IMG/VR virus record: IMGVR_UViG_3300046490_000013
Location: 1 to 37,483 of that record
DNA length: 37,483 nt
Strand: one strand, 5' to 3'
Origin: a virus
Lineage: Duplodnaviria > Caudoviricetes
How positions within the stretch are numbered: the stretch's first letter is position 1; each line of letters starts with the position of its first letter. A model generated the notes under the pieces. It was not told where the DNA came from. It ran no database searches and saw only the letters and a list, made by a program, of their open reading frames with translations. Shown here piece by piece: positions 2,350 through 36,223 of the stretch. The position numbers and the translations under genes are program-made.

Positions 2350-3915
2350 GTGACTGCACCCGACAACACGATTGCCACCATCGACGGCGGCGCGTCCCTC
2401 GTCGGTGAACCCAACGTCCCGGCCAAGACTCCAGAGGACTGGCTTCAGATCCTGGCACGCCGGCTCGACCTCCGACGCAACCACGTCAACCGGCTGCGGC
2501 AGTATGTGGACGGCAACGCCCCTCTGCCCGAAATGTCTGATGAGACAAAGGAAGCCTGGCAACGCTTCCAGCGCAAGAGTCGAACCAACTGGGGCGAACT
2601 GATCGTCTCGTCTGTGGTGGATCGCGTTGTGCCCAACGGCATTACGGTCAACGGCGACCCCAAGCACCCGAAAGCCAAACTGGCACAGAAGATCTACCGC
2701 GACAACCGGATGGACTCTGTCATCAAGGACTGGCTTCGAGCCGGCCTGACGTTCGCGCAGTCATACATGACGGCGTGGCGTGGCACCGACGGCAAGCCGG
2801 TGATCACTGCGGACTCACCGGAGACGTTCTGCGTCATCACCAACCCCCTCCAGAAGTGGCGACCCATTGCGGCACTGAGGGTTTGGCGTACAGAGGAACT
2901 GGCACGCGACTACGCGATGGTGTGGACCGACGGCGTGTGGACCCAATTCTCAAGGCCCACATACACATCGGTGGAGCACAAAGTCATCCCCACCCGGTGG
3001 CTCACCAACCTGGCCGAGGGATCATGGACGCGGATCGACACCGGAACCAGCATCGACATCCCCGTCGTTGTCTACAACAATCCTGACAGCGCAGGCGAAT
3101 TCGAGTACCACACCGACCTCATCGACCGCATCAACGCGGGAATCCTCGAACGTCTCGTCATCGTCGCGATGCAGGCGTTCCGGCAGCGCGCTCTCACGGG
3201 CGGAATGCTGCCAGAGAAGGACGAGCAGGGCAACAGCATCGACTACTCGAAGGTGTTCGCGCCGGCTCCAGGTGCGCTGTGGAATCTTCCCGCAGAGATG
3301 GAGATCTGGGAGTCGCAGCAGATCGACACCGGCCCGATCCTCAACGCAAGCAAGGATGATGTTCGCCAGTTGTCCGCTGTCACAAGGACTCCGCTGCCGA
3401 TGCTGATGCCCGACAGCGCGAATACCAGCGCGGAGGGCGCGAGGTCTGCGGAGAACGGCTACATCTTCCGATGCAAGGACAGGTGCAACGAGGCGAAGCT
3501 GGGCGCGATTGCGATCCTCGTGACCGCGCTCGCGATGGCGGGTGAGGAACTGGCCGACGACGAGACTCTCGATGTGAGTTTCGAACCGGTGGAACGGATT
3601 ACGCTCGCGGAGAAGTACACGGCGGCGTACCAGGCGAAGCAGGCCGGCGAGTCGATCAAGTCGATCCAGCGAAACGTGTTGGGGTACAGCCCAGATCAGA
3701 TCGCGCAGGACTCCATCGACCGCGCGCAGGATGCGTTGATAGCAGCCAGCTTTGCGCCGCCGCAGCAGCAAGCTCTGCCGCCGGGACAGAATCCGCAGAG
3801 GTCTGCGGAAGTGCAGCAGCGCAACGGATCTGCGCCGCCGGCTGCGAATGACCAACGGCCACAGAAGGTTCCGAGTCAGCGCGTCCCGGTGAAGCCGGCC
3901 AGTGGCAAGCCGTAA
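2350..3915 (+). CDS. Portal protein (SPP1 gp6-like) with Pro/Gln-rich C-terminal tail
   Basis: 521 aa after TerL. SRTNWGELIV, GEFExHxDLIDRIN and MQAFRQRA motifs of actinophage portals. Confidence 0.93.
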   Translation: MTAPDNTIATIDGGASLVGEPNVPAKTPEDWLQILARRLDLRRNHVNRLRQYVDGNAPLPEMSDETKEAWQRFQRKSRTNWGELIVSSVVDRVVPNGITVNGDPKHPKAKLAQKIYRDNRMDSVIKDWLRAGLTFAQSYMTAWRGTDGKPVITADSPETFCVITNPLQKWRPIAALRVWRTEELARDYAMVWTDGVWTQFSRPTYTSVEHKVIPTRWLTNLAEGSWTRIDTGTSIDIPVVVYNNPDSAGEFEYHTDLIDRINAGILERLVIVAMQAFRQRALTGGMLPEKDEQGNSIDYSKVFAPAPGALWNLPAEMEIWESQQIDTGPILNASKDDVRQLSAVTRTPLPMLMPDSANTSAEGARSAENGYIFRCKDRCNEAKLGAIAILVTALAMAGEELADDETLDVSFEPVERITLAEKYTAAYQAKQAGESIKSIQRNVLGYSPDQIAQDSIDRAQDALIAASFAPPQQQALPPGQNPQRSAEVQQRNGSAPPAANDQRPQKVPSQRVPVKPASGKP

Positions 3916-6823
3916 GTCTCGCAGCTTCGCCAACCCGGCCTACCGGGAAGATGTCCTCCGGTACTCGCCGGAAGAGGCGTACCGCAACGCCGTCCGAGAC
4001 GTGAATCACCGTGTGGTGCAATACGTTCAGCAGGCATACCGATCTGACCCGAGGTTCCTGACAAGCCAAGGTCATGTCGACCGGTTGACCGCGATGATGG
4101 CCCCGATGGTGCAGGCCGGCCAGGTGCAGGTTGCGGACCTGACCAACGCCCACCTGTCGACCCTGTTCGGCGTGAAACATCCACCCGCGCCCAACCTTTC
4201 GGAGTTCGCGCGCGAAGGAGTCACCGCCACAACGGAATTGGCCCGGCCGTTCTGGACGGCGATCAAGGCAGCGCAGGCAGGCAAGGACTTCGACGCCGCG
4301 ATGGCAGCCGGCGAGGCGAGGCTCACCAAGATGGTGCAGACCGACCTCCAGATGGCGAAGGTCCGACAGGCGCGAGACGTGTTGAAGGCAGGCGGAATTC
4401 AGCGGTATGCGCGGGTGACCGGCGGCACCGCGTGCTGGCTGTGCGAGATCGCCGCCACCCAGGTCTACTACACAGAGGATCTCCTGCCGATCCATCCCTC
4501 GTGCAACTGTTCAGTGCAGCCGATCCCCGACGGCGGCGAAGCGGAGATCCGCGACGGCTTCACTCCAGACGAGATCTTCCAGCATGCCACCGATCAAGTG
4601 AAGCTCATGGCTGGATTAGTGGAAAATGAAGCACCACTGGAGGATTACCAGAAGCTGGTCGAGGTCCGCGATCACGGCGAGATCGGCCCGATGCTGACCT
4701 GGAAGCACCAGAACTTCACCGGCCCAGGCGATCTGCCGGTTCCGCCGTCCAAGGAAGTACTGAATCACCAGGCCGGAATCGCAACTCCCGCAATGGAATC
4801 TGCGGATCGCCTTCGCATCAAGGCCGGCACCGACCCGGCCAGCACCGACCCGTGGTGGGTGAAAGAGGATATGCGCGAAGGTCAAGTGCCGCGCAGATTC
4901 GTCAACATCGAGATGGGCGCGCCCTACAAGTGGTATCCCGATTCCCCGTACACCACCAAGGAGGGGAAGTGGCTGGAGAACCGTCATCCCGGCCTCGTCA
5001 CCTCGTTCTCCAACATCGAAGATCCCACTGCCGTAAAGCAATTCGTCAACGGCTTCGACAAGATGGCGCAAAAATATCCCGAAGTCACGGTGACCGTGGT
5101 CAATTCTGACAATCTGTGGCAGGCCAACGCGCAAACGGAATATCACACGAGCGTCTCCACCGTTAATGGCAAGCTTCGCGGACTGGTGGAGAGCAAGGTA
5201 ACCCTGAACCGATCAGACTCAATTCCCGAGCAGGCCAAGAAGTTACGCGATACGGTGAAGGAATCTCCCAGCGTCTACGGTCAGATTTACCCGAACGGGA
5301 AGCACGACATCTTCTACGGGAACGCCGTCCATGAGTACGGGCACGTCATGGTTCACGCTGGTGACTACCAAGCAACGGAAGCGGAAGCCAAGCAGGTTCT
5401 CAAGCAGATGTGGAAGGCCCAGAAGGGAGAGCCAGGCGGCATCAAACTGTATGGCGAATGGTTCGAGTCGGCAGTCCCTTACAGCTACGCGAGAACCAGT
5501 ATCGGGGAGACGCTCGCCGAATGCTTCAAGGACGTAGAACTGAACGGCAGCAAGGCTTCTGACGTATCGAAGGCGATGCACAAGATCGTTGTCGACAACT
5601 ACAACAATCAAGTTCCGGTAATGGAACGCCGGAAGCCGTCCCGCAAGTCGCCGTCAAAGATCGTGGCTGAGAAGGAAGCAACGCGCGGCGAGAAGTATCT
5701 GGCCCAGTATCAGAAGAAGGCCGAGAAGTTCACGAAAGACGCAGAGGCGCAAGCGAAACGAGACGCCGCCGCAGCCAAGAAGGCAGCAGCAGCCGCAGCC
5801 AAAGCGGAGAAGGCAGCAGCCAAGGAAGCGCAGTTGGCAGCCGAGGCCGAGCTTCGAGGACCGCCGCCCGGTGAGACGCGCAAGTTGCTGCCCAACGGAG
5901 ATCCGTTGCCCGACAAGGCGGAACGTGTCTCCAACCTTCGCGCCCGAAAGCCCGAGCTCGTCGCCAACCAAGGTGCGCGCTACGAGGAACTGACCGATCA
6001 AGAGAAGATAAACGGAAGACGTTGGTACGCAGACCAATGCACCACCGCAGCCAACCAGGCCATCGATGGTGGGCATGGATTCACGCCGCTGCAAGGAGTT
6101 TCGGTCAACGGCGCGCTGTCGCCGCAGACCAAGTATCCGATCAACACGGCGCAAGGCGAGCGATACCTGAGTGTGCCGCGCGGAGAAGGTAATTCGGCCA
6201 TCCGCAAGATGCCGATCAGTGCCACGAACGCGATGGGAACCAACGCAGAGCGTGCCGACAGGCTTTCCACCGCAAAGACTTTCGATGAGATGCTGACCGC
6301 GCTCCACGAAAAGACCGACGCCAAGAAGTTGACCAACTACATCTCGTCGGCCTGGGTCAAGGCTCATCCAGAGGACATCGCTGACCGCGCAAAGCTTTTC
6401 ACCGTCGACACCTGGGCCGTCCGCACGATGGATCACTCGCAGCAAGAGATCCGCGACGTGTTGAAACTGCCGGCCGGCACCAGGCTGTCGGAGCGACAGG
6501 AGTCGCGCGGCGAACTGCTGCTCAGTTCGAAAAAGTATGGGACGCACTGGGAATGGAGCAAGGGCAAGGGGAAGTGGGTCGAGCTTCCCAACTATCGAGC
6601 GGTCGACATGATCGGTGACGACTACGATGTATTCCAAGAGGCCGGTGTCGAGGCGGCGTCGAAAGCATCTGAATTTGCAGGCACTTACGAGTCGCGGTTC
6701 AACGAGGCGACAGGGAGGTTCGAGACAGTGATGGTCGATGACAAGCCATCGAAGTGGCTGCCAGAGGACTACCAGGCCGCGCTGTGGGGCCAGATCGTTC
6801 CGGCGGCACCGCCCGGTGTCTGA
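3902..6823 (+). CDS. Capsid maturation protease / MuF-like minor head protein fused to a zincin-like domain and a C-terminal uncharacterised (possibly glycosylase-like) domain
   Basis: 973 aa between portal and scaffold. N-terminal ~280 aa has YARV...ACWLC...PIHPSCNC and ends HGEIGPML...FTGPGDLP. HEYGH at aa 477-481, ETLAE at aa 536-540, Ala/Lys linker, then WY...ALSPQ...K...TVDTWA...YQAALW. Confidence 0.85.
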   Translation: MASRKSRSFANPAYREDVLRYSPEEAYRNAVRDVNHRVVQYVQQAYRSDPRFLTSQGHVDRLTAMMAPMVQAGQVQVADLTNAHLSTLFGVKHPPAPNLSEFAREGVTATTELARPFWTAIKAAQAGKDFDAAMAAGEARLTKMVQTDLQMAKVRQARDVLKAGGIQRYARVTGGTACWLCEIAATQVYYTEDLLPIHPSCNCSVQPIPDGGEAEIRDGFTPDEIFQHATDQVKLMAGLVENEAPLEDYQKLVEVRDHGEIGPMLTWKHQNFTGPGDLPVPPSKEVLNHQAGIATPAMESADRLRIKAGTDPASTDPWWVKEDMREGQVPRRFVNIEMGAPYKWYPDSPYTTKEGKWLENRHPGLVTSFSNIEDPTAVKQFVNGFDKMAQKYPEVTVTVVNSDNLWQANAQTEYHTSVSTVNGKLRGLVESKVTLNRSDSIPEQAKKLRDTVKESPSVYGQIYPNGKHDIFYGNAVHEYGHVMVHAGDYQATEAEAKQVLKQMWKAQKGEPGGIKLYGEWFESAVPYSYARTSIGETLAECFKDVELNGSKASDVSKAMHKIVVDNYNNQVPVMERRKPSRKSPSKIVAEKEATRGEKYLAQYQKKAEKFTKDAEAQAKRDAAAAKKAAAAAAKAEKAAAKEAQLAAEAELRGPPPGETRKLLPNGDPLPDKAERVSNLRARKPELVANQGARYEELTDQEKINGRRWYADQCTTAANQAIDGGHGFTPLQGVSVNGALSPQTKYPINTAQGERYLSVPRGEGNSAIRKMPISATNAMGTNAERADRLSTAKTFDEMLTALHEKTDAKKLTNYISSAWVKAHPEDIADRAKLFTVDTWAVRTMDHSQQEIRDVLKLPAGTRLSERQESRGELLLSSKKYGTHWEWSKGKGKWVELPNYRAVDMIGDDYDVFQEAGVEAASKASEFAGTYESRFNEATGRFETVMVDDKPSKWLPEDYQAALWGQIVPAAPPGV

Positions 6824-7034
6824 CGATCCCGACTTCTGGTACACCGTCTCTCATTCGAGTGGCCGAATCTCCAAGTGCTACAACTGGTTCCAGGCGTACA
6901 ACGAACTGGCGGAACCCGGCGCGGTGGGCACCATCAAGCATCACGGCCATGTCATCGCCAGCCGGCACACCGACGGCAAGTGGATGTGGGCGGCGCGGTT
7001 CTGGGAACCTGGACTCGATGTGGAGGTCGAATGA
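6816..7034 (+). CDS. Small hypothetical protein (72 aa, MSDDPDFWY...)
   Basis: GTG at 6816 overlaps the upstream stop; ATGA overlap with the next gene; same frame as track ORF 6738..7034. Confidence 0.65.
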   Translation: MSDDPDFWYTVSHSSGRISKCYNWFQAYNELAEPGAVGTIKHHGHVIASRHTDGKWMWAARFWEPGLDVEVE

Positions 7035-7288
7035 TGTTGCTACGCCCACTCACTGATGAAGAGTTGCGCGTCTCCTTCACCATCGCGCTCGACGGCATCG
7101 TGGCCGGAAAGTGGAGCGCGTGCCCATCCGGCACCGGGTTGGACGATCAGACGATCAGCGTCATCAATGCCCTTGCCTCGCAACCAGATCCGAAAACGCC
7201 GGCCGACATCGCCGCGTGCAGAACAGAATTCGCGCGCCAACTCGACGGGACACACGCTCGCGAGGACGCAGAAAGCTATGCGGAGTGA
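7031..7288 (+). CDS. Small hypothetical protein (85 aa, MMLLRPLTDEELR...)
   Basis: GGAGG RBS, ATGA overlap upstream, GTGA overlap downstream; looks acidic and helical. Confidence 0.75.
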   Translation: MMLLRPLTDEELRVSFTIALDGIVAGKWSACPSGTGLDDQTISVINALASQPDPKTPADIAACRTEFARQLDGTHAREDAESYAE

Positions 7289-7500
7289 TCGAGTCGTACT
7301 GGGCTGAGACAGCCGACGGCGAACGCCACCAATGCGCCACGCCATCGGCTGCATGGGCGATCCTCATCAACCTGAGAAAGCAGGGAAGGATCGTGTGCCA
7401 GAACAGGATTGACGACAACTCTCCCAGCACATGGACCGTTATCGACCGCGACCCAGACGGCTACTGGTCAGAGATACCGTCTCCGATTACCGTTGTGTAG
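7285..7500 (+). CDS. Small hypothetical protein (71 aa, MIESYWAE...)
   Basis: GTGA overlap with the previous gene; same frame as track ORF 7111..7500; shares a residue pattern with 6816..7034. Confidence 0.65.
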   Translation: MIESYWAETADGERHQCATPSAAWAILINLRKQGRIVCQNRIDDNSPSTWTVIDRDPDGYWSEIPSPITVV

Positions 7501-7526
7501 CAACAGTTTTGGTACGCTCGTCACAG

Positions 7527-7589
7527 TTTCATCCGCAGAGGTGAAAGTACCAGTCCCGCAACGGGATTGGATCGGCGTAACGCTGGAGG
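7527..7589 (+). promoter_or_regulatory. Three tandem hairpins in the scaffold leader, the last overlapping the GGAGG RBS
   Basis: TTTCATC-cgcaga-GGTGAAA (7527-7546), CCAGTCCCG-caa-CGGGATTGG (7550-7570), TCGGCG-taa-CGCTGG (7572-7586); RBS at 7585-7589. Confidence 0.6.
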
Positions 7590-7598
7590 CGAATTCCC

Positions 7599-8222
7599 TT
7601 GTCCGATACCGCAACTGACACTCCTACCCCGGCCAACATGCCGGTCAGTCTGATCGTTGAGACTGACCCGGCGATCACCGAAACGCCCAGTGCGACAGAG
7701 ATTCCCGAGGCACCCGCCGACGGCACGATCACCGCAGACGAGCGTGAGGAACTGGCCAAGCTTCGAGCCATCCACAAGGATGAGCAGAAGTGGGAACGGC
7801 GCGCCAAGGAAAACTTCGAGAAGGCCAAGAGGCTGGACGAGTTGGAGATGGCGAAGAAGTCAGTCGAGGAACGATTGATTGCCGAGCGCGATCAAGCCCT
7901 CGCCACTGCGGAAACCGAACGGACAGAACGGCTTCGAGAGAAGATCTCGCGCGAGACTGGAGTCCCGCCGGATCGGATCACCGGAGCGACTGAGGATGAC
8001 ATGAGGGCAGATGCGGAGAACGCGCTCTCGTGGGCCAAGGAGTTCGCCAAGAAGACTGCCGGCCCACTGGGCGCACCCGCTGCCGCTGTGACCGGAGACG
8101 GCAAGGGACCACAGGCTCCCGCGCAGTTGAACAGAGACGACCTTAAACGCATGACCCCGCAGCAGATCATCGAGGCCGAGAAAGCCGGCCGACTTGACTA
8201 CCTGAAGGGTCTTAACTCCTAA
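7599..8222 (+). CDS. Scaffolding protein
   Basis: 207 aa, TTG start after GGAGG. Acidic Pro/Thr-rich N-terminus, coiled coil KWERRAKEN, C-terminal LKRMTPQQIIEAEKAGRLD; directly upstream of the capsid gene. Confidence 0.9.
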   Translation: MSDTATDTPTPANMPVSLIVETDPAITETPSATEIPEAPADGTITADEREELAKLRAIHKDEQKWERRAKENFEKAKRLDELEMAKKSVEERLIAERDQALATAETERTERLREKISRETGVPPDRITGATEDDMRADAENALSWAKEFAKKTAGPLGAPAAAVTGDGKGPQAPAQLNRDDLKRMTPQQIIEAEKAGRLDYLKGLNS

Positions 8223-8243
8223 CGGAGACAGGACAATACGATC

Positions 8244-9071
8244 ATGGCAATCACGCACTTTATCCCCGAGCTTTGGGCCGCTGAGATGCTCGAACAGTGG
8301 AACGCGGTCAACGTGTGGGCACCGCTCACCAACCGCCAGTACGAGGGCACCCTGTCGCGCGGCAACACCGTGCACATCACCGGCGTCGTTCCTCCCACGG
8401 TGAAGGACTACAAGGCCAACTCGCGGACCACGTCCGCCGAGGCGATCTCCGACACCACGATCAATCTCGTTGTGGATCAAGAGAAGTCGACCGACTTCTA
8501 TGTCGATGACATCGACCGCGCACAGGCCGCCGGCTCGCTCGCGAGCTACACGCAGGCTGCCGGATACGCGATGGCCGAGGACACCGATAAGTTCATCGCC
8601 AACCTGGCGGTGACCGGCGGCACCACGCTGACCGGATCGGCACCCACCACGGGCGACGATGCGTTCAACCTCATCCGCGATGCGCGCAAGCTGCTCAACA
8701 AGGCCAACGTGCCGTCCGATGGCCGCATCACCGTGGTCAACGCCGAGTTCGAAGCCCTTCTGCTGGGCGCGAATTCGAAGCTGACGACCGCCTACGCTGC
8801 CGGCGATGCGCCGTCCGCGGGTCTGCGGAACGCCACCATCGGCAACCTGCTGGGCACCCAGGTGATCACCTCGAATCACCTTCCGGCAGTGAACCATCCG
8901 CAGTTCGTGCAGTTCTCGATCCGCGCTCTGGCGTTCGTCAGCCAGATCGACCAGGTCGAGGCGATGCGTTCGCAGGACAAGTTCGCCGACCGCCTTCGTG
9001 CGCTGCATGTGTACGGCGGCAAGGTGATTCGTCCCGCCGGCATCGTCGTGTTCAACCCCAGCGGCTCGTAA
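8244..9071 (+). CDS. Major capsid protein
   Basis: 275 aa. MAITHFIPELWAA, GNTVHI, FYVDDIDRAQ and DRLRALHVYGGKVIRP motifs typical of one actinophage capsid family; follows scaffold. Confidence 0.93.
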   Translation: MAITHFIPELWAAEMLEQWNAVNVWAPLTNRQYEGTLSRGNTVHITGVVPPTVKDYKANSRTTSAEAISDTTINLVVDQEKSTDFYVDDIDRAQAAGSLASYTQAAGYAMAEDTDKFIANLAVTGGTTLTGSAPTTGDDAFNLIRDARKLLNKANVPSDGRITVVNAEFEALLLGANSKLTTAYAAGDAPSAGLRNATIGNLLGTQVITSNHLPAVNHPQFVQFSIRALAFVSQIDQVEAMRSQDKFADRLRALHVYGGKVIRPAGIVVFNPSGS

Positions 9072-9082
9072 GGTCTTGGGGC

Positions 9083-9667
9083 ATGGACGCTTTGGCCACC
9101 GTTGCCGATGTGGCAGCGGCTCTTGGCCTTGGTTTGGATGCTGACGCACTGACCGAGGAACAGCAGGCGCGGGCAATCCCCTTGCTGGCCAAGGTGTCCC
9201 GGCGTTTCCGGCTGGAAGCGCAGCGTCGATTCACGCCGGGCACTTACACGCACTACCTCAAGATCTTCGCGGGCGCAGTGAGGCTCGAAGAGATCCCTTC
9301 CGAGGTGATCAGCGTGGAAGTGCCTGGCGTGGACGATGTTTCGTACTCGCTGGTGCAGAACTGGATCACGTTCGATGACTACTGGCTGCCCGAGTACACC
9401 GGCAAGACCGCGGCGGTCACCTACAAGTGGACTGCTCTGGTGCCTGCCGATGTGGTGGCGACGGTGGCCGACATCGTGGCGCGCAATCTGACTGTCGACC
9501 CGAATTCCGTTGTCGCGCAGTCGAAAGCACTCACCGCGGGCCGGCAGTACAGCCAGGACGTGGCCGACTGGGTGTCCACCGGACAGGTGGGTATGAACGA
9601 CGACGACATCATGGTGGCGAAAAGCTACCGGTATCCCGCGCCGCCGTCGATTGTGTTGCACCCATGA
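9083..9667 (+). CDS. Head-to-tail adaptor
   Basis: 194 aa. LATVADVAAALG start and VPADVVATVADIVAR; follows capsid. Confidence 0.8.
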   Translation: MDALATVADVAAALGLGLDADALTEEQQARAIPLLAKVSRRFRLEAQRRFTPGTYTHYLKIFAGAVRLEEIPSEVISVEVPGVDDVSYSLVQNWITFDDYWLPEYTGKTAAVTYKWTALVPADVVATVADIVARNLTVDPNSVVAQSKALTAGRQYSQDVADWVSTGQVGMNDDDIMVAKSYRYPAPPSIVLHP

Positions 9668-10014
9668 CCTTTCCGACGCCGTACCTCGCCCAGCATTACC
9701 CGTACACCGGAGATCCCGCGGTGGTGGACGAGATCGGCAACGTGCTCGACACCTGGGCCGAAAGGCCGAAACCTGTTGCCATTCAAGGCTGGGAGACTAC
9801 GGTTACCGAGCGTCTGGGCAACAGCGAGCAGGGAGAGATCATCAACGCCGTCTGTCAGGCACCGCCTGACTGGGTGCCGGGAATCCATGATCGCGTCCAG
9901 TTGCCCGACGGCCTGCTCTACGAGGTCATCGGAATCAACTACTGCACCAACGGTTTTCACGGCTGGCGACCCGGTAACGAGATCCTGTTCAAGCGAGCGA
10001 CGGGCATCATCTGA
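9664..10014 (+). CDS. Head-to-tail stopper
   Basis: ATG at 9664 (ATGA overlap). MTFPTPY...DEIGN...DRVQLP...YEVIG...GFHGWRPG motifs. Confidence 0.8.
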   Translation: MTFPTPYLAQHYPYTGDPAVVDEIGNVLDTWAERPKPVAIQGWETTVTERLGNSEQGEIINAVCQAPPDWVPGIHDRVQLPDGLLYEVIGINYCTNGFHGWRPGNEILFKRATGII

Positions 10015-10430
10015 TGGTCAGGGCACCGCAGACCAACAGCATCGTCTGGGACGAGGCCGGCTGGGACGAGCTTCTCAAGGGAATCGTCAAGTCGCAGTTG
10101 GAACCTCGCGCCAAGCGCATCGCCGACGCCTGCAACGAACACGTCAAGGCTCATGCAGAGGCGACACTCGCGGCAGGCGACAACCTCGATGCTCCCAACA
10201 TCCTTGGCAAGCGCAAGGCGAACGCCAGCGAGGTGTCGGCTATCCGCAGGCTCGAACACGCGGGGCCGGCTGAAGGCAAGGATGACTACATGGTCGACAC
10301 GGAAGGCTCGAATCCGTTGAGACTCAACGACTATCGGGCTACCGTGATCACTGTGAGCGAGAGGGCGAAGGCGGATAACGCCCGTAGTCACACGCTCGTG
10401 ACGAATCTTCACCTGGGAGGTGGCGAGTAG
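10014..10430 (+). CDS. Neck / tail-completion region hypothetical protein
   Basis: 138 aa between stopper and terminator; RATVIT...A..DNARSHTL motif seen at this position in actinophages. Confidence 0.7.
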   Translation: MVRAPQTNSIVWDEAGWDELLKGIVKSQLEPRAKRIADACNEHVKAHAEATLAAGDNLDAPNILGKRKANASEVSAIRRLEHAGPAEGKDDYMVDTEGSNPLRLNDYRATVITVSERAKADNARSHTLVTNLHLGGGE

Positions 10431-10846
10431 TGGCCACCATCGACGTGCCCGACACAGGCTACTTCGAATACCTCCCGCTCGTCCTGCGCGACGAGCTTCT
10501 CACCCGTTTACCCTCCGATGTTGTTGTGGCAACGATGATTCCAGAGGTAGTGCCGCCGAGGCTGGTACTCCTGCTGAGCGTCCCTGCCAACGGAGATATG
10601 AACCTCGCCCTGTCGACCCGGCGTTGCATCATCGAATGCCGTGACAGGACAGAGGTTCTCACTGGCCGACTCGCCGAAAAGGTGCGCGGCTTCTTGGTGG
10701 ATGCAATGTATCGGCCTGGCAACGGTATTCGCGATGTGAACATCATCGGTGAACCAGCCATCTATGTAAACCCCGACGACCCGTCGAACACACCTCGCGC
10801 AACGCTCACGGTGGATGTATTACTGAGGGCTACCCACGCTCTCTAG
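10430..10846 (+). CDS. Tail terminator
   Basis: 138 aa directly before major tail; PDDP..PRATLTVDVLLR C-terminus. Confidence 0.75.
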   Translation: MATIDVPDTGYFEYLPLVLRDELLTRLPSDVVVATMIPEVVPPRLVLLLSVPANGDMNLALSTRRCIIECRDRTEVLTGRLAEKVRGFLVDAMYRPGNGIRDVNIIGEPAIYVNPDDPSNTPRATLTVDVLLRATHAL

Positions 10847-10876
10847 CCAAAATCCGCAGACCCCTGCGCTTTTGGT
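10846..10876 (+). promoter_or_regulatory. Stem-loop upstream of the major tail gene (attenuator or mRNA-stabilising hairpin)
   Basis: GCCAAAA-tc-CGCAG-accc-CTGCG-c-TTTTGGT; the inner stem is followed by a short T run. Confidence 0.5.
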
Positions 10877-10894
10877 CATCACGTCCTTGAAACA

Positions 10895-10920
10895 TGGCCG
10901 GTTCCAACGCCTTTGGAGGG
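10895..10920 (+). promoter_or_regulatory. TGGCCGGTTCCA box overlapping a small hairpin that includes the start of the major tail RBS
   Basis: Box at 10895-10906; TCCAA-cgcct-TTGGA (10903-10917) pairs into GGAGGG (10915-10920). Confidence 0.55.
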
Positions 10921-10927
10921 CAGAATA

Positions 10928-11521
10928 ATGAGTGGAACTTCCACCTTGAAGGTCTACGCGGCAGAACCGTTGGCCACTGGGTCAATTCGCGTTGCGCCGC
11001 TGGGCACCGCAGCACCGACCGATGCGACCTCTGTGCTTCCCGGCACCTGGATTGACCTGGGTTACGTCGGCGTCGATGGCTTCGTGGAGAAGAACGAGCG
11101 CAAGACCGACAACAAGCGGTCGTTCGGCGGCAAGATCGTGAAAGTGCTTCAGTCCGAATACAATGCGAGCATCGAACTGACTCTTCTGGAGTCGACCGAC
11201 GCCGACACGCTGAAGGCCGTTTTCGGCTCCAGCAACGTCACCATTGTCGCGGCCACCTCGTCGCACGGCATCCAGATCACGGTGAAGAAGAACAGCAAGC
11301 GTCTTCCTCACCAGTCCTGGGTCATCGATACCGCCGACACCGAGATCGGGGCGTCCTACCGCAATTACGTTGCGGACGGCAAGATTTCGACCGTCGGTGA
11401 CATCAAGATCGTGCACACCGACACCATCGAATACAAGATCACCATCGAGGCGTTCGAGCCGGCGGGTGGCGGCGACAACATCGTCACCTTCATCGATGAC
11501 GGCCAGAAGCTGGCCAGCTAG
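10928..11521 (+). CDS. Major tail protein
   Basis: ATG 10928 after GGAGGG. APLGTAAPTDA...DLGYVGVDG...FGGKIVKVLQSEY...IVHTDTIEYKITIEAF motifs. Confidence 0.93.
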   Translation: MSGTSTLKVYAAEPLATGSIRVAPLGTAAPTDATSVLPGTWIDLGYVGVDGFVEKNERKTDNKRSFGGKIVKVLQSEYNASIELTLLESTDADTLKAVFGSSNVTIVAATSSHGIQITVKKNSKRLPHQSWVIDTADTEIGASYRNYVADGKISTVGDIKIVHTDTIEYKITIEAFEPAGGGDNIVTFIDDGQKLAS

Positions 11522-11525
11522 CAAA

Positions 11526-11615
11526 CTCACGGGCGGGTGTCTCCTGTAACCACCTGGAACCGGCCACGATTCACCCGCCCGTGGGCCGGCTCCAGATCAA
11601 GAAGGGTCCGGTTCC
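11526..11615 (+). promoter_or_regulatory. Structured intergenic element: 12-bp GC stem with a large loop complementary to downstream and distant boxes
   Basis: CACGGGCGGGTG (11528-11539) pairs with CACCCGCCCGTG (11572-11583). Loop contains CCTGGAACCGGCCA (11553-11566). GGCCGGCTCCAG (11584-11595) and CCGGTTCC (11608-11615) follow. Confidence 0.7.
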
Positions 11616-11618
11616 GAA

Positions 11619-11924
11619 TTGTTCACTTACACAACCGAATTCGAGGGCGAAGAGGTCGACATCGTCCTGCGTCCTTTCGGTGAGATGCCCGGCAGGATCT
11701 CGCGCCTGCATCGCGGCGATGTCGAGTCCCAGATGTGGGAAGCGTTCGAGTGGGGTCTGAAGGACTCGAAACAGCTTGCCATCATTGACGAGATGCCGAT
11801 GTCGGAGATCACCGACATGCTGTCGAAGTGGCAGGTCGACGCCGGGACAGACCTGGGAAAATCGCGTCCCTCCTCGACTACATCGAGGACGAAGACCACA
11901 GGGGCGCGCTCGAAGCTGACTTGA
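11619..11924 (+). CDS. Tail assembly chaperone (short form, gpG-like)
   Basis: 101 aa between major tail and tape measure; contains the slippery site at ...DLGK. Confidence 0.88.
   Translation: MFTYTTEFEGEEVDIVLRPFGEMPGRISRLHRGDVESQMWEAFEWGLKDSKQLAIIDEMPMSEITDMLSKWQVDAGTDLGKSRPSSTTSRTKTTGARSKLT
11855..11861 (+). other. Programmed -1 ribosomal frameshift site GGGAAAA
   Basis: CTG GGA AAA TCG in the chaperone frame; the -1 frame reads GGG AAA ATC GCG (GKIASLL...) and stays open to 12304. This is the canonical G/GT slippery heptamer. Confidence 0.9.
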
Positions 11925-12304
11925 TCAAAGCTGGTCTGCGCCTTCGTGATTGCCCATCGCCGGGATTCACATGGCGCGACTTGCAGGTCTTCATCGAGTA
12001 CCTCGACAACGACTCGTGTCTGGTTGCCGCCGTGTACCCAGATCGCGCCGGCTGGACGAAGCAGAACATGCTGCTCGCGTACCTCATCGACACTGCCCGA
12101 ATTCACTTGTGGCTCAACACAAAAGACGGGCATGAGAGGCGCAACTTCCCCGAGCCGATTGACCGACCGGGCATCGTGAAACCCGAGCCGCGCAAGGGTT
12201 CTAAGGTAAAACCGTTGCCTCTGAGTAAGATCAGAGAGATTCACGGCGCACAGCCAACCGGTGTCGAGCGGAAACGCAAGCTAGAGGCGATCTTTCGCAA
12301 TTGA
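11855..12304 (+). CDS. Tail assembly chaperone, frameshifted C-terminal part (gpGT-like, fused to the 11619 start)
   Basis: GALEADLI..GLRLRD...FTWRDL..F...W...NMLLA...P.PIDRPG motifs; no separate strong start. Confidence 0.88.
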   Translation, partial: GKIASLLDYIEDEDHRGALEADLIKAGLRLRDCPSPGFTWRDLQVFIEYLDNDSCLVAAVYPDRAGWTKQNMLLAYLIDTARIHLWLNTKDGHERRNFPEPIDRPGIVKPEPRKGSKVKPLPLSKIREIHGAQPTGVERKRKLEAIFRN

Positions 12305-12318
12305 GAGGACGAGATCCG

Positions 12319-15300
12319 TTGGCCAAGAAGGGATCTGGTGGCACGGGCGGTGCCCACCTCGCGTCCGGTTACATCTCGCTGTCGGTCAAGTACGCATCGG
12401 CGATGGGTCAGATCGCCAGCGACTTCGACACCATCGACAAGCGCGCCAAGTCGACCGGCGAGAGCATCACCAAGAACCTCGTTGCCGGCGCGGACAAGGC
12501 GAAAGCCCAAGTGCAGGAACTGGGTTCGGCCTACGAGGCGCAGAAATCCAAGGTGGCCGCGCTCAAGGCCGAGGTTCAGCAATTGCAGGCCGTGCAGGAA
12601 CGCGCCGCCGCTGCGGAGAGGGCCGGTGCCGACGCCCGGCGGGTCTACGCGGAGCAGCAGCACGCCAATACCCAACGGTCAGTGACACTTCAGGAGCAGT
12701 TGAACGCAGCCGTCGCGAAGGTCCGCGACTCGATGGGCGGCAAGAAAGCCGACGGCGATGCCGTTGCCGCTGCGGTCAAGGAGAACGCCGCCGTCCAGGC
12801 CATCTACAAGCAGCAGGCTGCTCTGGAAGCCAAGCGCAAGAAGGACTTACAGGATGTCACCCGCGCTGAGAAGGAAGCCGGGGCGGCGCGTTCGGCATCC
12901 GCTGGCGATGGCGGCAAGGCGCAGCAGACTCTCAACGCAGAGCTTGCCAAGGGCAAGGAATTGCAGGAGCAGTACTCCAAGGCCGTTCAGGACGCCACCC
13001 GCAAGCAGGAGTTGGCCACCGTCGCGGAGCGTGACGCCGCAGCGCAGATGGAGAAGAACCGGACCCTTGGGCAGCGCATCGCGTCCGCTGTCGCCGGCCC
13101 GTTCGCACCGCAGCTTCAGCAGGCAGGTAGCAAGGCGGCCATAGCTTTTCGCAATGCCTTCAACCGCGACATGGCACCGGCGAAGGTCGAGTCTGAGCAT
13201 CACGCCAGGAACATCGCATCCGGTCTGCTGATGGGCATGACACCTCAGTTCCTGGGCGCAGCCGGCGCAGGGCTGGCTATCGGTGCGGCCTTCAAGAAAG
13301 GCTTCTCGATCAACGAGGATGTCGCGACGGCGCAGGTCAAGCTCGAAGCCTTGGGTCATTCGCAGGCTGAGATCAACACCATCATCGCCGATTCCCAAAA
13401 GGCTGTCGCCGGAACGTCTTACGAGTTCGCCGATGCGATGAACGCATCGGTGGTGGCGATGGCGGCTGGCGTCAAGCCCGGTCAGGAGATGGAGCGGCAT
13501 CTCAAGAACGTCGCGAATATCTCTGCGCTGACGGGTGATTCATACGATTCGGTGTCCGAGACGCTGAATCGAGTCAACGCCTACCAAGTGGTGCAGGCAC
13601 GCGACATACGACCGCTGATCTCGAAGAACATCCCTGTGCTGCAATGGCTTCGCGAGTATTACATCAAGCAGACCGGCAATCAGAAGATCTCCATCAACGA
13701 TATCCGCGAGATGATCACCAAGAAGATGATCTCAGCGGACGTGTTCGAACAGGTGCTGTCAGAGAACCTGAGTGGTGTCGCCGAGAAGGTGGGAAGCAAG
13801 ACCGTCGGCGGCGCGATGAAGAACCTGTGGAAGAACGTCGGCGAGGTCACCGCCGCGATGATCCAACCTGTATTCGGTTCCATCCCAAGCCTTCTCAACA
13901 AGATGTCGGCCGGGTTGGGCCACTTCGCCGAATACATCAAACCGAAAATGCAGGCAGCCGTCGACTGGATCAAGAGCGTCTGGGCCAAGGCGTGGCCTTT
14001 CATCTCCGCGCTGTGGGAGAACCAGAAGAAGAACTGGAACATCTTGTGGCAGGACGCAATCAAGGTGTTCGAGTGGTTCCACGAGCGGTGGTCGAAGCTG
14101 TGGCCGCAGATCAAGAGCTACATCGACAAGTTCGTCGCGATGTGGAAGGAGATGTGGCCTCAGTTGATGGATCACGTCAACCCGTTCCTCGCGGCATGGA
14201 AGAGGCTGTGGGACCAGTTGTATCCCATCGTGTCTCCCATCGTGAAAGCCATTGCGGCCATTGTTGGTTGGCTGGCCTACGAGTTCATCAAGCACATGCC
14301 GGCGATCACGCAGTTCGCGACGAATCTGATTCAGTGGATGGGCAACGCGCTGGAGTGGCTGCGTACCAAGTTCTGGCCTTGGCTGAAGGACTCGTGGAAG
14401 CACTTCGTTGAGGATGTGCAGGGCGCGATCAAGACGGTAAAAGACTTCTCGCAGGGCATCATTGACCGTTTCCAGATGGCGAAGGACGGCACCACCGCGA
14501 TCTTCAAGTGGTTCGGTGACCGCATTCAAGACCTGAAGGACGGGTGGACATGGATCAAGGAGCACAACCCATTCGGTGATTCCGGTGCCGGTGGCGTCAA
14601 CCTCACGTCCTCGTCCAGTCCGCTCGTCCAAGGTGCGCCCGGTCCCAACGTGGCGATGCCTGCCGGTCTGATCGATACCGAGGGCAAGCATTCCGGTCCA
14701 CAGGCGAGATACGTTGCGGGACTTGTCATGCAGCAGTTCGGCATCGATCACGTAGGCGGCGCGAGGGCATCGGGCACCGCGAAGAACACGCATGACACGG
14801 GCACGTCGATTGACATTCCTATCGGACCTAGCGCGGAGGAACGCGCCAAGGGCGACAAGATCAACCAATGGCTTCAGGACAACGCGAAAGCCCTTGGCAT
14901 CTACTACACCATCTGGAAGGACAAGGGACTCAACGCCGTTGACAATCCTTCCGGCGGTGCGGGTTCCACGTTCGACGTGTCAGGCCACCAGAACCATATC
15001 GACGTTCACTTCGATGGAAAGACCTTCGCCGCAACAGGTTCCAACGGGCAGAACTACAACATCGCGCCGGCGGCCTCGTCTCATGCGATGAGCGGTCAGG
15101 ACAATCAGCTTGCGGCGGCACTGAAGGCGCGCGGATTCACCGACAGTCAGATCACCGGACTGATCGCACTCAACAACGTCGAGACGGGCAACTGGGCGCA
15201 CCCAGAGTCCATCATGGGATTTACGAATCAGCAGACAGGGCCAGGCATTTCGGCTCACGTCGGAGGGTTCAAGGGGATGTGGGACCGTCGGCAGTCGAGC

Positions 15301-36193: not shown

Positions 36194-36223
36194 CCGCCGC
36201 AGCCGGTTCCAGGGCGACGGTGG
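36194..36223 (+). promoter_or_regulatory. Leader hairpin enclosing a GCCGGTTCCAGG box and pairing into the RBS region of the next gene
   Basis: CCGCCG (36194-36199) can pair with CGGTGG (36218-36223); box at 36202-36213; ATG at 36230. Confidence 0.45.

Follow-up and report, generated by a model that had tools for sequence, protein, structure and literature searches.

The tail gene region

The window (the whole stretch of DNA analysed, 37,483 nucleotides or 37.5 kb, with 62% G+C) carries the late genes of a siphovirus in the order terminase, portal, capsid, tail terminator, tail tube, chaperone and a long gene that is probably the tape measure. The tail features described here all lie on the + strand. 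The tail terminator gene (10430-10846; phrog_123, E 3e-7) is followed by the gene for the major tail (tube) protein (10928-11521), which encodes 197 amino acids from an ATG at 10928 and matches PF25681, phrog_117 and, by tblastn, annotated major tail genes. The tail assembly chaperone gene has a TTG start and encodes G (11619-11924) and, through a predicted −1 frameshift at the slip site GGGAAAA (11855-11861, in the −1 register), the longer product GT (11619-12304); phrog_1326 is matched in both frames, and DUF5361 is also matched in this gene. A preliminary description of this DNA had named the latter two genes as major tail and chaperone, and on these matches both identities hold.

The nearest tube proteins of cultured phages are those of mycobacteriophages Nebkiss and Gaia (57%), followed by LilSpotty and DS6A, and a nucleotide BLAST search of 10700-12200 against cultured phages returned 28 records, which match the tube coding region only. 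Two further observations concern the head genes: an ORF of 973 amino acids 3' of the portal gene (3902-6823), with weak VG15 and DUF7178 matches, would be an unusually long protein for the head-maturation region, and the leader of the probable scaffold gene (7520-7598) holds a short inverted repeat (7553-7570 region) 5' of a TTG start.

Between the tube and chaperone genes lies a stem-loop (11526-11585) whose G+C-rich stem, P1, consists of 14 bp with one G.U pair (11526-11539 with 11572-11585), including a 12-bp core of exact reverse complements (11528-11539 and 11572-11583), and whose loop is 32 nt long. Within the loop, the element L (11555-11566), the mobile pairing strand, is the exact reverse complement of box A (10895-10906), a 12-nt sequence at −33 to −22 of the tube ATG; the match extends no further. 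Box B (11584-11595) lies directly 3' of P1, is complementary to L at 11 of 12 positions and could form either a pseudoknot or an alternative hairpin. Box C (11605-11615) overlaps the chaperone SD (11600-11606), the two together occupying 11600-11615; it matches at 8 of 8 positions at 11608-11615 and, as an RNA duplex, would extend into the SD and comprise about 10 bp, interrupted by one bulge. Every coordinate given for stem, loop and complements in the preliminary description checks in the sequence, and the partner that it had placed at the chaperone start is longer than stated, covering both SD and spacer. Since A, B and C pair with the same loop nucleotides, their pairings would be mutually exclusive, as had been proposed. 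Competition among them was judged by duplex energies alone, and those predicted in the window are −25.2 kcal/mol for A, −23.2 for B and −19.9 for C.

A 12-nt inverted match is not rare in the window taken alone, where inverted 12-mer pairs, counted at any distance, number 238 and where 5 of 911 tiles of 41 nt match the loop over at least 10 nt; the case therefore rests on relatives. Box C in the window itself has p=0.09 against shuffles, despite its significance in 45 of the 64 related loci described below.

Loci compared and methods

Tube homologues were gathered by scans of viral, genome and metagenome sequences and from 21 annotated phage records. This gave 174 loci with a tube gene, 153 of them with both flanks, which were reduced to 75 representatives at 90% protein identity, L5 being included among these as an outsider; L001-L006, which repeat other loci, and L154, which has no downstream flank, were left out. 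A stem 5' of the chaperone start is present in 64 representatives, a spacer shorter than 45 nt in eight, and the remaining three have no chaperone within the flank. Chaperone starts were taken from annotation (20 records and the window), from homology, or by hand from the SD and the N-terminus (28 loci and L126). In five loci the strongest helix was the L-B pairing and P1 was reassigned. In Kratio (L151) the annotated chaperone GTG (1268) lies inside P1, and an ATG 45 nt downstream has a good SD and fits the element better.

The significance of pairing was assessed against dinucleotide shuffles (p<=0.05). Because a MAFFT alignment of 19 whole loci misregistered the loop of the window clade, covariation was measured by comparing cognate with non-cognate matching, in place of a column-wise, R-scape-like statistic.

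Covariation of the loop with its boxes

Pairing with the loop is significant for A in 38 of 64 loci, for B in 49 of 63 and for C in 45 of 64, counts that overstate the number of independent events because the loci share ancestry. The longest perfect L-A run is bimodal, at 10-15 nt in 34 of 64 dereplicated loci and at most 8 nt in the rest, whereas 2.4% of the 4032 non-cognate L-A pairs reach 10 nt; the covariation of loop and boxes in relatives, put forward in the preliminary description as the check on its proposal, is thus borne out. The mean run in A-positive loci is 11.6 nt, compared with a mean of 5.9 and a maximum of 7.3 over 10,000 permutations. These 38 loci fall into 19 sequence classes that do not match one another, and in each clade box A is matched to that clade's own loop: GGCCGGTTCCA in the window clade, GGCCCCGGCTGC in Gaia-like phages, GGCCGGGTCCA in Horus, CAGGCCCAGCCA in Zapner, and GGCTCCTGGTCA in Birdsong and Lucky10. 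The classes are distributed over different branches of the tree, which was made by a quick method and is weak in its deep branches, and neighbours such as L017, L020, L022 and L033 differ by single compensated pairs.

Box A is the strongest loop partner in 33 of the 38 A-positive loci, with predicted medians of −29 kcal/mol for A, −23 for B and −21 for C. A occurs without C in L009, L010 and L020, and four of the 64 loci (L011, L082, L083 and L122) have the stem but no significant box. The spacer of L082, L083, L084 and L122 has a different, conserved two-hairpin form, for which neither the tube leader nor the chaperone SD offers a loop-box match.

A genome of 62% G+C, with as many inverted pairs as were counted above, could in principle produce chance complementarity around an ordinary intergenic hairpin, but this is refuted by the cognate versus non-cognate test and by the conservation of position and covariation across lineages, and we regard its probability as negligible. 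The comparison of loci indicates that the loop-box complementarity is a real, conserved and covarying RNA element.

Other potential targets of the loop

When the loop was compared with all 34-41 gene leaders of a genome, its best partner was the tube or chaperone leader in three of four genomes; in Horus the scaffold leader scores slightly above the tube leader. Zapner, LilSpotty and Horus (32-34 kb each) contain no loop complement of at least 10 nt beyond the tube and chaperone leaders, and neither the window nor three cultured phages have a capsid-gene counterpart of the element of at least 8 nt. A search of viral contigs with an 18-nt loop pattern gave four matches, two of them in relatives already known and two that arose by chance in DNA of no relation.

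The window holds a possible fourth box (36202-36213, + strand), a 12-nt perfect loop complement at −28 of a membrane-protein gene (phrog_5552) that follows the lysin. Its leader ranks second of 34 gene leaders and its relative position is the same as that of box A; the downstream gene has no relatives in viral contigs, and no box was found at its single distant homologue. This second 12-nt complement, before a gene of the lysis region, would suit a small RNA acting in trans, produced by excision of the stem-loop or as the end of a short transcript, that binds A, C and perhaps other leaders such as that at 36202; so would four Nocardia loci in which A matches an L lying 1-2 kb past the tube stop. 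Trans action appears very unlikely, however, given that B and C are cis neighbours of the loop, that the three cultured genomes above are free of such complements outside the two leaders, and that no promoter-like site was found on the + strand within 10300-12400.

Evidence for pairing in RNA

The internal mismatches of 144 duplexes, obtained with mismatch-neutral scoring, comprise 32 G.U, 4 A.C and 17 others (p=2e-6), or 25 G.U against 4 A.C when counted by distinct context, while the coding-region control gave 5 G.U, 7 A.C and 39 others. Among L5-like loci, 61 of 63 of which keep the loop, four of the positions of box C that face a loop G vary between C and T only, never A or G, and the position that faces a loop C is an invariant G. 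The excess of G.U over A.C and the restriction to C/T variation point to RNA of the coding strand and not to a DNA site.

Read as DNA, A, B and C are direct repeats and A and L an inverted pair around one gene, so that the boxes could be a protein operator or inversion or recombination sites, with the loop merely an inverted copy. A DNA site predicts G.U and A.C mismatches at about 1:1, where 32 and 4 were observed on the coding strand; moreover, the sequence varies over 19 classes, the inverted copy always lies in the loop of a strong stem, and none of the 20 annotated phage loci viewed has an inverted tube gene. We therefore consider DNA repeats highly improbable, and the sequence turnover over the 19 classes also argues against sequence-specific binding of the boxes by a protein. 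The loop-box pairings would almost certainly form in the late mRNA.

An intrinsic terminator was rejected as an identity for P1, since none of the 64 loci has a U-tract (at most four T in the 8 nt 3' of P1 in all 64) and the loop in the window is 32 nt; no terminator was called at P1 in the window. The late genes 1-32 of L5 appear to be read as one transcript (PMC5712189), which, together with the lack of a U-tract, suggests that P1 is not a plain terminator and that protein amounts are set after transcription starts.

The same features are compatible with a role of the pairings mainly in RNA processing or decay, in which P1 with B would protect a processed tube mRNA at its 3' end, and L-A pairing would close it and shield a cleavage site, as in hbs. 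In 53 of 64 loci the distance from the tube stop to the strong stem without U-tract is 2-18 nt, the window has a small 5' hairpin, and A lies outside the SD; a 14-bp pairing of the hbs 5' and 3' untranslated regions is reported to modulate RNase Y cleavage (PMC5737220). Such a role, which we judge unlikely, leaves unexplained why box C, with its tuned G.U pairs, is retained over the spacer and SD of the chaperone gene, and why the stem tracks the chaperone gene and not the tube stop after insertions.

Distribution of the core and of box A

The loci compared place the element in this phage and in many relatives infecting mycobacteria and their kin. P1 lies 28-67 nt 5' of the chaperone start in 62 of 64 loci, and box B ends at a median of −28 of that start (n=48). 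Insertion of genes 3' of the tube gene leaves the stem next to the chaperone, and A still matched, as in Horus (one small gene), L126 (653 nt) and the Nocardia loci L095, L097, L098 and L100 (about 1-2 kb). The ORF inserted into the tail operon of L126, between the tube stop (1776) and the chaperone start (+653), begins LLLSGGIDS, in the manner of a QueC-type nucleotide hydrolase. Copies of the L092 loop occur on other contigs.

Box A is absent from 26 of 64 lineages and from all 38 distinct L5-like leaders checked, and is therefore dispensable; 37 of these 38 leaders have a box B run of at least 7 nt. B and/or C without A are found in Gordonia phages Hexbug and Feastonyeet, Arthrobacter phages Renna12 and Ruchi, Microbacterium phage AvGardian and Rothia phage Spartoi, in L5-like phages, and in phages of clusters K and G. 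The element is absent from Lactococcus and Streptococcus phages and from Nadezda, all with short spacers, and inspection by eye found no recognisable box A in the eight short-spacer representatives. Because the stem follows the chaperone gene across insertions and B and C are more widespread than A, the device appears to be primarily a chaperone leader, with A extending its reach. This distribution identifies the chaperone leader (P1, B and C) as the core and A as an add-on.

Several loci depart from the common arrangement. L108 and L109 are close relatives without spacer and stem, of which L109 has a decayed box-A-like sequence and L108 has none, as if A erodes once L is gone. L012, L016, L018, L021 and L037 form an A-negative clade with its own upstream hairpin in the tube leader; the leader of L037 matches 11 nt just 3' of P1, and not the loop, a possible alternative long-range pairing. 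Box B is present in two to four tandem copies in L140, L141, L148 and the L5-like L206-L268, and these copies may tune competition with box C.

The tube leader and its RBS

The tube SD, GGAGGG (10915-10920), is separated from the ATG at 10928 by 7 nt. In the minimum free energy fold, a small hairpin (10847-10875) lies directly 3' of the tail terminator stop and 5' of box A, and a weak terminator-like match (10855-10868) falls inside it. The preliminary description had drawn a TCCAA/TTGGA hairpin (10903-10917) over the SD, which can be drawn but has a predicted probability of 0.0; pairing of 10883-10888 with 10916-10921 is predicted instead (P about 0.99, with individual pair probabilities of 0.98-1.0). 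The resulting SD-sequestering hairpin (10883-10921) contains box A in its inner stem and loop. Across loci, the predicted partner of the tube SD lies no further 3' than the end of A in 27 of the 38 with box A, compared with 5 of 37 others (p=2e-8), and in these predicted folds the hairpin that holds the tube SD around box A has the layout of a toehold switch.

Box A ends at a median of −25.5 of the tube start and at −22 or further 5' in all 38 loci, in a search that reached −15; the tube SD occupies about −13 to −8. Opening box A has a predicted median cost of 8 kcal/mol. The preliminary proposal that pairing with A opens the tube RBS finds support in the position of A within the SD-holding hairpin, but the modelled gain is weak. 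With A blocked, the median gain is 0.9 kcal/mol (at least 1 in 18 of 38 loci) and 10 of 38 loci shift in the opposite direction by at least 0.5; in a steric variant, in which pairs enclosing A are forbidden, the median gain is 2.2 kcal/mol, and reaches at least 2 in 20 of 38 loci as against 7 of 37 controls. In the window the tube SD is predicted to be paired with or without A blocked, as a short local hairpin still holds it.

The ten loci that model as less open with A blocked could instead indicate that L is a brake everywhere, lowering tube translation at A (by a standby-site block or by decay, as in icaR) and chaperone translation at B and C, perhaps with feedback through stabilisation by a tail protein. 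A and B are nearly equidistant from their start codons (−25.5 and −28), which would suggest one effect at both, and the icaR 3'-5' pairing is reported to repress (PMC3868564). A brake at A fits poorly with a tube protein that is the most abundant tail part, at about 192 copies in lambda (PMC5009743), and with the placement of A off the SD yet inside the SD-sequestering hairpin in 27 of 38 loci, a proportion of 5 of 37 at the control position; we hold this reading to be quite unlikely.

A separate motif, AACT(G/A)AATA, is present in 15 of 75 representatives (for example L181:8140 and L182:7490), where it lies within 90 nt 5' of the tube start, and is absent from the window. It is single-copy in the late regions of Zapner and LilSpotty, lies 5' of box A or of the SD, and is possibly an enhancer or a processing site.

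Comparison with known systems

In the MS2 coat-replicase (Min Jou) coupling, long-range pairing masks a downstream start and ties it to the upstream gene, as would be the case here; unlike the element described here, the MS2 pairing lies within the coding region and is opened by ribosomes. The antisense RNAs P4 CI and P1 c4 likewise have loop sequences with upstream and downstream complements, but are processed, trans-acting immunity RNAs. A frameshift-stimulating pseudoknot was ruled out, because such a structure lies a few nt 3' of its slippery site and the element ends about 240 nt upstream of the GGGAAAA at 11855.

In S. aureus icaR (PMC3868564) and B. subtilis hbs (PMC5737220), as is proposed for the phages, sequence behind a gene pairs with that gene's own leader; the hbs pairing is 14 bp, and both pairings span the whole coding region, as L-A would. 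Such a 3' element pairing across the gene is indicated by sequence in 38 of 64 loci, with covariation. The icaR type pairs over its own SD, which box A does not, ending at −22 or further 5' throughout, and it combines a translation block with RNase III cleavage. The phage element also differs from icaR and hbs in using as its 3' partner the loop of a hairpin, for which two more targets at the following gene would compete, and in lying in a polycistronic phage operon and covarying across many lineages.

The operator pseudoknot of E. coli rpmI-rplT (PMC1888825) is alike in its long-range pairing across a gene of a structural-protein operon, with nucleotides near the start sequestered; there the pairing is the binding site of protein L20 and has one partner, compared with the three alternatives that sequence comparison suggests here. 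In the repZ pseudoknot of IncI plasmids (PMC8383071), a loop and a box just 5' of the RBS control translation, and the putative L-B pairing resembles it, box B lying just 5' of the SD (median −28, n=48). Translation of repZ requires the pairing, and a separate antisense RNA, Inc, competes for the loop and acts as the switch (PMC8383071), whereas cis boxes would compete here, one of them 650 nt upstream.

Among actinophages, a cluster O mycobacteriophage hairpin after the major tail gene (PMC4351075) has the same position and stem length; it is described as having a T-tract and read as a terminator, in contrast to the large loop, lack of a U-tract and matching boxes of P1. The SAS/ESAS of cluster K mycobacteriophages (PMC3203893) are likewise short repeats at translation starts. 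They share one fixed 13-bp consensus at many genes, whereas the present boxes are lineage-specific, confined to two leaders and accompanied by an antisense loop copy; membership was rejected, as the sequence of the boxes changes from lineage to lineage and is unlike the consensus that PMC3203893 quotes. Fremin 2023 (PMC10690425) lists ten unnamed candidate structured RNAs upstream of Phage_TAC genes, within 25 bp, and one before DUF5361. The table entries give no loop-box pairing, and the two chaperone-side candidates whose hosts were checked are from Aeromonas and Lachnospiraceae; others on the list may overlap the present element.

Rfam 15 gave three matches in 7000-12500 of the window, each scoring well under the gathering threshold and lying outside the element, and none in 20 related loci. 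A description of the element was not found in the literature searched, which covered few subscription journals, in agreement with the preliminary description, which knew of no named element. Long-range translational control by 5'/3' pairing is thus known, and a loop with three alternative boxes across two genes appears to be new.

Proposed mechanism

Covering an RBS blocks initiation and, because box C overlies the spacer as well as the SD at its 3' end, L-C pairing should do so at the chaperone gene. Pairings of 8 nt are reported to block an RBS from hundreds of nucleotides away in B. subtilis (PMC12697547). It is likely that L-C would mask the chaperone SD and reduce the synthesis of G and GT, and that B, close by, would draw off L and so determine what fraction is masked; since B pairs with the shared nucleotides of the loop, is the first to be made and has its end near −28, it should compete with C. 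For A-positive lineages we lean slightly towards a step in which L docks on exposed A and invades the tube-SD hairpin, linking both genes. Given the cost of opening A and the long loop, the three partners may, on a rough estimate, be balanced.

Taken as a whole, the element is probably a translational switch in cis, in which L-C blocks the chaperone RBS and L-B or L-A frees it. If L does link the two genes in A-positive lineages, both RBSs would be more open there with L-A formed and more closed with L-C formed. Speculatively, a blocked chaperone RBS could also thin expression of the tape measure and minor tail proteins by polarity.

The preliminary description suggested that such exclusive pairings could set tube to chaperone stoichiometry, and they may do so. 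In lambda, the ratio of G to GT is 30:1 and the tail incorporates about 192 tube subunits (PMC5009743), and by analogy the purpose of the device would be to tune the tube against G/GT.

Significance for tail assembly in actinophages

A single long late transcript has to supply tube subunits by the hundred, chaperone in a measured amount and only a few tape measures. The G/GT frameshift accounts solely for the ratio within the chaperone pair, and the element would offer a covariation-backed mechanism one step above it. The phages concerned are easy to mutate (L5-like phages, clusters F, G and K, and Gordonia and Arthrobacter phages), and the natural sequence classes are ready swap and rescue controls. 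The tube-chaperone spacers of these phages, which are easily taken for terminators, probably are not.

Tentatively, the element may represent an undescribed kind of RNA device that is general among actinophages: a single hairpin loop, reprogrammable in sequence, would select one of three sites distributed over two genes. In many lineages its pairing would bend the mRNA across the entire tube gene, a span of up to about 2.8 kb where there are insertions, so that the RBSs of tube and chaperone switch together. Present in textbook phages, in L5 as the core and in cluster F in its full form, the device would act as a natural toehold switch and would meter the assembly of tails at a step above the G/GT frameshift. 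If this is true, a natural long-range, multi-target mRNA switch would join the short list of icaR, hbs, rpmI and repZ.
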